The notes under the pieces were generated by a model, which was given only the letters and a program-made list of their open reading frames with translations, was not told the DNA's origin and ran no database searches. A stretch of 64,000 nt of DNA, taken from the NCBI RefSeq assembly GCF_963921235.1, contig NC_086108.1:5456001-5520000 (forward strand), read 5' to 3'. The DNA comes from Mobula hypostoma. Taxonomy: Eukaryota. Made by a program: the position numbers and the translations under genes. Positions 13,952-15,590 of the stretch are shown here, piece by piece. Every line of letters starts with the position of its first letter. Within the stretch, counting starts at the first letter, position 1.

Positions 13952-15590
13952 CAGTTGAAGTCAGACGTTTACATACACCTTAGCCAAATACATTTAAACT
14001 CAGATTCTCACAATTCCTGACATTTAATCCTAGAAAACATTCCCTGTCTTAGGTCAGTTAGGATCATTACTTTATTTTAAGAATGTGAACTGTCAGAATA
14101 ATAATAGAGAGAATGATTTATTTCAGCTTTTATTTCTTTCATCACTTTCCCAGTGGGTCAGAAGTTTACATACACTATGTGAGTATTTGGTAGCATTGCC
14201 TTTAAGTTGTTTAACTTAGTTCAAACGTTTTGGGTAGCTTTCCACAAGCTTCTCACAGTAAGTTGCTGGAATTTAGTTCCATTCCTCCAGACAGAACTGG
14301 TGTAACTGAGTCAGGTTTGTAGGCCTCCTTGCTTGCACACACTTTTTCAGTTCTGCCCACAAATTTTCTATCAGATTGAGGTCAGAAAATGATGTCAAGT
14401 CTGGTTCATCCTTGGGAGCAATTTCCAAACACCTGAAGGTACCACATTCATCTGTATAACTAATAGTACGCAAGTATAAACACCATGGGACCATGAAGCC
14501 GTCATACCGCTCAGGAAGGAGACGCATTCTCTCTCCTAGAGATGAACATACTTTGGCGTGAAAAGTGCAAATCAATCCCAGAGCAACAGCAAAGGACCTT
14601 GCGAAGATGCTGGAGGAAACAGGTAGACAAGTATCTATATCCACAGTAAAACGAGTTCTATATCGACATAACCTGAAAGGCTGATCAGCAAGGAAGAAGC
14701 CACTGCTCCAGAACCACCATAAAAAAGCCAAACTGCAGTTTGCAAGTGCACATGGGGACAAAGATCTTACTTTTTGGAGAAATGTCCTCTGGTCTGTTGA
14801 AACAAAAATTGAACTGTTTGGCCATAATGACCATCGTTATGTTTGGAGGAAAAGGGTGAGACTTGCAAGCCGAAGAACACCATCCCAACCGTGAAGCATG
14901 GGGGTGGCAGCATCATGTTGTGGGGGTGCTTTGCTGCAGGAGGGACTGATGCACTTCACAAAAGAGATGGCATCATGAGGAAGGAAAATTATGTGGATAT
15001 ATTGAAGCAACATCTCAAGACATCAGTCAGGAAGTTAAAGCTCAGTCGCAAATGGGTCTTCCAAATGGACAATATCCCCAAGCATACCTCCAAACTAGTG
15101 GCAAAATTGCTTAAGGGCAACAAAGTCAAAGTATTGGAGTGGCCATCACACAGCCCTGACCTCAATCCGATAGAAAATTTGTGAGCAGAACTGGAAAAAT
15201 CATGTGCGAACAAGGAGGCTTACAAACCTGACTCAGTTACACCAGTTCTGTCTGGAGGAATGGAACTAAATTCCAGCAACTTACTGTGAGAAGCTTGTGG
15301 AAGACTACCCAAAACGTTTGACCCAAGTTTAACAATTTAAAGGCAACACTACCAAATACTCACAAAGTGTATGTAAACTTCTGACCCACTGGGAAAGTGA
15401 TGAAAGAAATAAAAGCTGAGATAAATCATTCTCTCTACTATTATTCTGACATTTCACATTCTTAAAATAAAGTAGTGATCCTAACTGACCTAAGACAGGG
15501 AATGCTTTCTAGGATTAAATGCCAGGAATTGTGAAAAACTGAGCTTAAATGTATTTGGCTAAGGTGTATGTAAACGTCGTACTTCAACTG
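13952..15590 (+). mobile_element. Sleeping Beauty-like Tc1 transposon, defective, left end replaced by an inverted copy of the right end
   Basis: TA|cagttgaagtcagacgtttacatacac...cttcaactg|TA; inner DR gtcagaagtttacatacac. Transposase from ~14396: KSGSSLGAISKHLKVP...[27 protein letters not shown]...[14 protein letters not shown], with several stops and frameshifts. Confidence 0.93.

Follow-up and report, generated by a model that had tools for sequence, protein, structure and literature searches.

The window (the whole 64-kb stretch of DNA that was analysed) contains a 1,639-bp relic of a Sleeping Beauty (SB)-type Tc1 transposon at positions 13952-15590, antisense to the gene C19orf47 and within one of its introns (Table 1). 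Its limits are exactly those given in the original prediction, with TA on both sides, and one copy of the element was found in the window.

The C19orf47 protein derived from the window (P0006) was placed on six exon blocks using tblastn. It was identical to the proteins of Hemitrygon akajei and Hypanus sabinus at 376/397 residues each (94.7%) and to that of Pristis at 364/397 (91.7%), followed by Narcine (87.2%), two skates and three sharks (81-87%) and Callorhinchus (64.6%); identity to chum salmon, Oncorhynchus keta, was 51.8% (227/438) and to eel also 51.8%. The 45-aa exon at 17364-17498 (-) was 100% identical to those of H. akajei and H. sabinus. By these protein comparisons the host is a ray, nearest to stingrays among the species compared but distinct from both H. 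akajei and H. sabinus, as expected from the cartilaginous-fish host that had been proposed.

The window is rich in Tc1 debris. Four relics of other Tc1 families, 32-56% identical to the SB protein, were located at 56834-57772 (-), 36715-37181 (+), 19687-20182 (-) and 18578-18910 (-). LINE 3' pieces at 18923-19664 and 31508-32249, in opposite orientation, are 98.8% identical over 742 bp, which indicates a putatively young retroelement family; the first of them interrupts a Tc1 relic. In the intron that holds the SB relic, ORFs of 255 aa and 125 aa overlap at 11737-12790 (+); by their motifs they resemble a pogo/Tigger-type transposase.

Table 1. Parts of the SB-type element, its target site and the neighbouring C19orf47 exons (window positions).
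Feature	Position	Strand	Basis or remark
Left TA target dinucleotide	13950-13951	none	sequence
Left arm: right end inverted (right IR/DR plus transposase codons ~273-340 antisense)	13952-14385	-	93.3% to 15156-15590
Left-arm outer DR, right-end type	13952-13983	+	one position-15 change, also in other arm
Left-arm inner DR, right-end type	14150-14181	+	
Junction filler, 11 bp	14386-14396	none	unlike normal left sequence and unlike continued right arm
SB-type transposase pseudogene, codons 20-340	14397-15363	+	
Right arm: ORF end plus right IR/DR	15156-15590	+	
Right-arm inner DR	about 15361-15392	+	
Right-arm outer DR	15559-15590	+	
Right TA target dinucleotide	15591-15592	none	sequence
C19orf47 exon upstream (gene direction) of the element's intron	17363-17499	-	
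C19orf47 exon downstream of the element's intron	10956-11051	-	approximate tblastn bounds

Transposase remnant and terminal repeats

The transposase frame is interrupted by six stops (codons 40, 74, 115, 282, 310 and 331) and two frameshifts (near codons 171 and 285). With the DD34E triad of SB transposase numbered 153, 244 and 279, as we assume, the first catalytic residue, Asp153, has been replaced by Val and Asp244 and Glu279 are retained. An intact 340-aa transposase with this triad is not present, codons 1-19 are missing, and the copy is dead.

The Pfam domains HTH_SB, HTH_Tnp_Tc3_2 and DDE_3 were detected in two of the three pseudogene pieces scanned, and a 117-aa frame matched SB100X (PDB 5cr4) with an E value of 4e-61. 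Against an SB cloning-vector transposase (P0256, AFR53956.1), 272 of 313 residues matched, for 87% protein identity over codons 20-340, with nine exact runs of 10-28 residues in common. Long transposase runs identical to SB had been claimed for this element, and all five peptides quoted agree with P0256 at every letter. Two frames split by a frameshift hold them, three at 14397-14429 (11 aa), 14631-14681 (17) and 14966-15043 (26) and the other two inside 14799-14852 (18) and 14864-14947 (28). The idea that natural SB variants could be drawn from this source fits a few residues that look lineage-level (codons 96, 97, 303, 305, 312, 313 and 317); it does not fit the copy itself, which starts at codon 20 and in which most changes are neutral decay.

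Reference elements were obtained by a metagenome scan in which 130 pattern matches were reduced to three loci (L001, L002 and L003). L001 (1113-2751) is a complete element of 1,639 bp in which the SB ORF runs uninterrupted for 340 codons and the ends have their natural asymmetry. It was labelled salmonid-type from its 99% identity to P0127, whose cluster includes Oncorhynchus and Hucho proteins, and may be a natural copy that is intact or else a consensus that the assembler made from many copies.

The left 434 bp of the ray element are the reverse complement of its right 435 bp at 93.3% identity, and the left arm is 92.2% identical to the right end of L001. This inverted right end replaces the left IR with its half-DR enhancer, the leader and codons 1-19. 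Of the left 446 bp of L001 only the DRs match the ray element, and a true left IR or leader was found nowhere within the 64-kb window. The DR offsets from each end, 1 and 199, agree with those of L001; the TIR start and inner DR that had been recognized at the left are present, although both belong to a second right end and not to a left one. Total length (1,639 bp) and codon-20 offset (446) are those of L001 (1,639 and 445 in L002), and may have been preserved by an in-register mechanism, by size selection or by chance.

The description as a near-SB transposon was borne out as to type and DNA identity (93%), not as to completeness: lacking the left IR and an intact ORF, the element is a rearranged, non-autonomous SB derivative and not an autonomous member. 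It resembles SB and the salmonid-type IR/DR elements (SB clade of DD34E/Tc1; PMC9777934, PDB 5cr4) in TA target, terminal motif, two DRs per end and length, and in DNA and protein identity. It differs from them in its host, in the second right end that stands where they have the left IR, enhancer, leader and first 19 codons, in its broken ORF, and in lineage residues foreign to the salmonid type.

The two arms were compared with L001 over 434 columns, gap columns excluded. All three sequences were identical at 385 columns; differences from L001 were shared by both arms at 21, confined to the left arm at 11 and to the right arm at 15, and of another kind at 2. Among the shared differences are the codon-310 stop and a change that abolishes the natural stop. 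Since both arms carry the codon-310 stop, the source copy was already broken before the arm was duplicated. Decay since then amounts to about 3% per arm, the arms now being 6.7% apart.

One other account of the long arms was rejected. They might have been the "3' TIR overlapping the ORF" of PMC9777934, and this was ruled out by the intact ends of L001 and L002, which are only 69-70% alike over approximately 230 bp. The maximum TIR length in that survey is 415 bp, and some teleost might carry a similar form. Folding of the first 249 nt yielded no signal (z -0.32).

Probable passage between bony fishes and rays

The ray element was 93.15% identical to L001 over 1,197 columns, 92.7% identical to L002, and 91.6% identical to L003 over 751 columns. 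In coding DNA its identity to the three loci (91.6-93.2%) lies above the SB-clade threshold of >80%; for SB against SB-like elements the identity is 61% (PMC9777934). The TA duplication, and an outer and an inner DR within each ~230-bp end, are likewise SB-clade traits. In a protein tree of 22 rows the ray copy fell in a 100/100 clade of 16 that holds P0256 and teleost SB-clade proteins; its place inside the SB clade was left unresolved by this tree, in which the bootstrap had not settled.

Over 319 codons the ray copy and L001 gave dS 0.078, dN 0.069 and omega 0.89. They differed at 8 of 120 fourfold sites (95% interval 2.9-12.7%), and the non-coding right end was 92% identical. The saturated dS that would have spoken against horizontal transfer did not appear. 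For comparison, the survey of vertebrate transfers in PMC7070016 took Ks <0.5 on at least 100 codons as its limit, and the present value falls below it. That survey further asks for Ks under the 0.5% quantile of core-gene Ks for the two clades, toward which the host-protein identity of 51.8% is no more than a proxy, and for a patchy distribution among taxa.

Because of the 93% identity and the low dS and dN, descent of the element from the bony/cartilaginous split is very unlikely. A slow shark/ray clock might be called upon in its support, the shark pedigree rate (7e-10 per site per generation) being among the lowest in vertebrates (PMC10587355). Slowing of the ray branch would nevertheless leave the teleost branch unslowed, so that the latter would need equal freezing; moreover, the host protein has shed 48% of its identity since that split, yet 112 of the 120 fourfold sites are identical in the element and its non-coding right end is conserved as well. 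Constraint does not explain such conservation at the omega observed. Vertical inheritance is contradicted by the dS and retains almost no credence. Dating by the same pedigree rate was tried and abandoned: 3% decay would correspond to ~4e7 generations, which is implausibly old, and no date was assigned.

The element is covered at a depth of 10^4-10^6 by four public runs, each from a different coded organism. On the ray flanks, three of these runs had zero depth and the fourth had traces in 3 bins; all four differ from the ray element at 92-94 places, with loose ends that continue into an intact 5' ORF. From the deep cover of the element and the near-empty flanks it follows that near-identical elements occur in animals other than this ray. 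The extreme abundance of SB-type DNA in public runs could also suggest that salmonid, other teleost or vector DNA had been joined into the ray assembly. Such an artefact is scarcely to be entertained, given that each end terminates precisely at a TA within a ray intron, that the copy has accumulated its stops and frameshifts, that the majority sequence of the four non-ray runs departs from it at 92-94 places, that the arms share lineage letters foreign to the salmonid type, and that the junction 14385/14397 was bridged by no listed contig of the eight public runs examined.

From the sequence comparisons, with the host gene compared by protein identity, it is very likely that the element lineage crossed between bony fishes and rays. 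Transfer into rays is the likelier direction, because SB-clade diversity lies in 107 ray-finned species (PMC9777934). Passage from rays to bony fishes, or to both from another host, a parasite for instance, is a good deal less probable, and we regard it as quite unlikely. The direction is not readable from one copy or from a tree unresolved inside the clade, Tc1/mariner elements make up 3.28% in skates and 2.30% in rays against 0.14% in sharks (PMC12361510), and parasites have been suggested as carriers of fish Tc1 elements (PMC2198921, PMC3516227). Against this, the sister groups of SB are also teleost (PMC9777934), and ray-finned fishes take part in 93.7% of 975 vertebrate transfers (PMC7070016).

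The accessible part of the 2022 survey (PMC9777934) gives SB for the 107 ray-finned species and one mollusc and lists no SB-clade element in cartilaginous fishes; its only entry from the latter, coded Calmil, is the ZB-like element of Callorhinchus milii, which belongs to another Tc1 clade. No report of SB in rays was found in the freely available literature searched; an entry may still stand in repeat databases, in the subscription literature or in the PMC7070016 supplements. A search at 50% clustering returned 14,447 relatives with no host information, and the taxa obtained from the ESM Atlas were at phylum level only. No chondrichthyan name occurred among the named matches of the protein searches for SB-type relatives, and no ray name among ten SB-type proteins looked up. 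The plasmid collection held no match to the element, the bacterial and archaeal genomes no relative of P0296 or P0127, and the viral contigs no relative of P0127. One viral contig (L004) matched 19 bases of the junction with no further similarity, and this was taken as chance.

There is ample documentation of Tc1 transfer between deeply separated vertebrate lineages (PMC3516227, PMC2198921, PMC7070016). In the teleost-lamprey case (PMC3516227) the copies are likewise near-identical and decaying neutrally; that element is of another Tc1 family and was not amplified from cartilaginous fish. With at least 975 vertebrate horizontal transfers (PMC7070016) the class of event is common, and the surprise is limited for that reason. 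What the present case would add is cartilaginous fishes as natural hosts of the vertebrate transposon tool in widest use, over one of the deepest splits among jawed vertebrates, with candidate sister lineages named outside the salmonids. A teleost invasion is also offered as a possible cause of the excess of Tc1/mariner elements in skates and rays over sharks; the main text of PMC12361510 does not contain the word "horizontal".

Relationships within the Sleeping Beauty clade

The first 400 nt of each row of the PMC9777934 supplement were compared with the ray element. The codon motif for Arg96/Gln97 of the ray element had three matches in the readable supplement, one coded Hetnil and two coded Panhyp (species codes read as Heterotis niloticus and Pangasianodon hypophthalmus), and these codons occurred in no other readable row. 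The salmonid-type motif had 35 matches in the same supplement; 27 of these were displayed, two of them at another position. Rows coded for salmonids, eel, tarpon, tuna and Beryx have the salmonid state at codons 96/97.

By eye, the ray element and L001 have 24 differences over codons 20-133; Hetnil shares the ray state at 8 of these, of which four lie outside CpG. Overall identity between the ray element and the decayed Hetnil copy was about 89% (by eye, 343 nt), below the 93% to L001. The Hetnil and Panhyp elements (PMC9777934) keep the ORF start, unlike the ray element, and each has many changes of its own. Toward the other end of the gene, the changes shared by the two arms at codons 303, 305, 312, 313 and 317 recur in intact C-terminal pieces, P0296 and P0402.

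Eight of 24 public runs were examined for such letters, with the flanks compared in four. Seven carry salmonid-type letters, whereas one (X20) represents a related lineage: one of its contigs has the ray letter at 6 of 12 scorable arm-shared sites and another letter at 6, the latter including the stop-making sites, and five further shared sites within range had no row. A direct salmonid donor is disfavoured as the best reading by the 21 arm-shared differences together with the codon-96/97 signature. The codon pattern is suggestive of the Hetnil and Panhyp copies, from tropical freshwater teleosts, as nearest published kin in place of a salmonid one.

A Logan cluster of 13 members (P0352) encodes a 112-aa SB C-terminal ORF with some ray-type residues. 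Its contigs reach 8 kb, one member occurs on 32 contigs, and the ORF may belong to an insertion that is fixed within a transcript of another host.

Proposed origin and mobility of the two-right-end form

We consider it probable that the element is a dead, TA-flanked SB derivative whose lineage crossed between ray-finned fishes and rays, whose left end is its right end inverted, and which likely still jumped in trans. The following course of events is proposed. A non-salmonid SB sub-lineage with Arg96/Gln97 would have been transferred between teleosts and rays, likely into rays. One copy would have died first, and its left end would then have been overwritten by the right end, through template switching or recombination between neighbouring copies and with the same total length. 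The product, having two complete IR/DR ends and neither promoter nor start codon, could have moved only by transposase supplied in trans, for which intact relatives would be the source. It would then have inserted at this TA and decayed neutrally by ~3% per arm.

The design has a mobile precedent. In the Rhodnius prolixus mariners Rpmar49 and Rpmar17 (PMC4678618) the 5' part is likewise replaced by the inverted 3' part, giving non-autonomous elements with long terminal repeats of transposase homology that were mobilized and amplified. Those are insect mariners with short, simple ends and many copies, whereas the ray element is known from one locus, derives from an IR/DR Tc1 parent with a left-end enhancer, has a 434-bp arm and keeps full length. 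Both Tc1 horizontal transfer and 5'-by-3' replacement are thus known; the host group and the combination were found in none of the literature checked.

The transposition enhancer of SB lies in the left IR only, and duplication of the left end raises activity (PMC5224488, PMC8151067). On both grounds a two-right-end form should be a poorer substrate. A two-right-end SB is said to have shown low activity (Izsvak, 2002). A direct statement of the activity of such a form was not found in the literature searched, in which end preference of SB is mentioned (PMC4505599).

The missing enhancer (PMC5224488, PMC8151067) also favours a variant in which the transfer is right and the two-right-end form arose in place, after insertion, by local gene conversion and never moved. 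The arms share a nonsense change, so that decay came before copying, and the length and codon-20 offset of an intact element are what in-register repair would be expected to leave; the TA flanks fit both cases equally. This variant is nonetheless judged improbable, in that the same design is mobile in Rhodnius (PMC4678618) and that arms 6.7% diverged make the rearrangement about as old as most of the decay of the copy.

Movement in trans before the last insertion is kept as the preferred account, and it would conflict with SB biochemistry, since an element without the left-end enhancer may have spread widely. DNA transposons decay neutrally within genomes (PMC7070016). A bolder proposal is made tentatively, at somewhat under an even chance: a non-salmonid SB lineage shared with tropical freshwater teleosts would have invaded stingray-group rays, and the dead, full-length two-right-end form without the left-end enhancer, expected from SB work in cell culture to be the weaker arrangement, would have multiplied there. 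If so, rays would offer a natural experiment on end preference, with repeated conversion of several Tc1 families into two-right-end parasites, and natural variants of the SB transposase and of the ends could be drawn from the ray lineage.

At position 15, an A-to-C change is common to the two outer DRs (window 13966 and the equivalent place in the right arm); it was seen neither in the inner DRs nor in L001 or L002. It is possibly a lineage-specific variant of the binding site.
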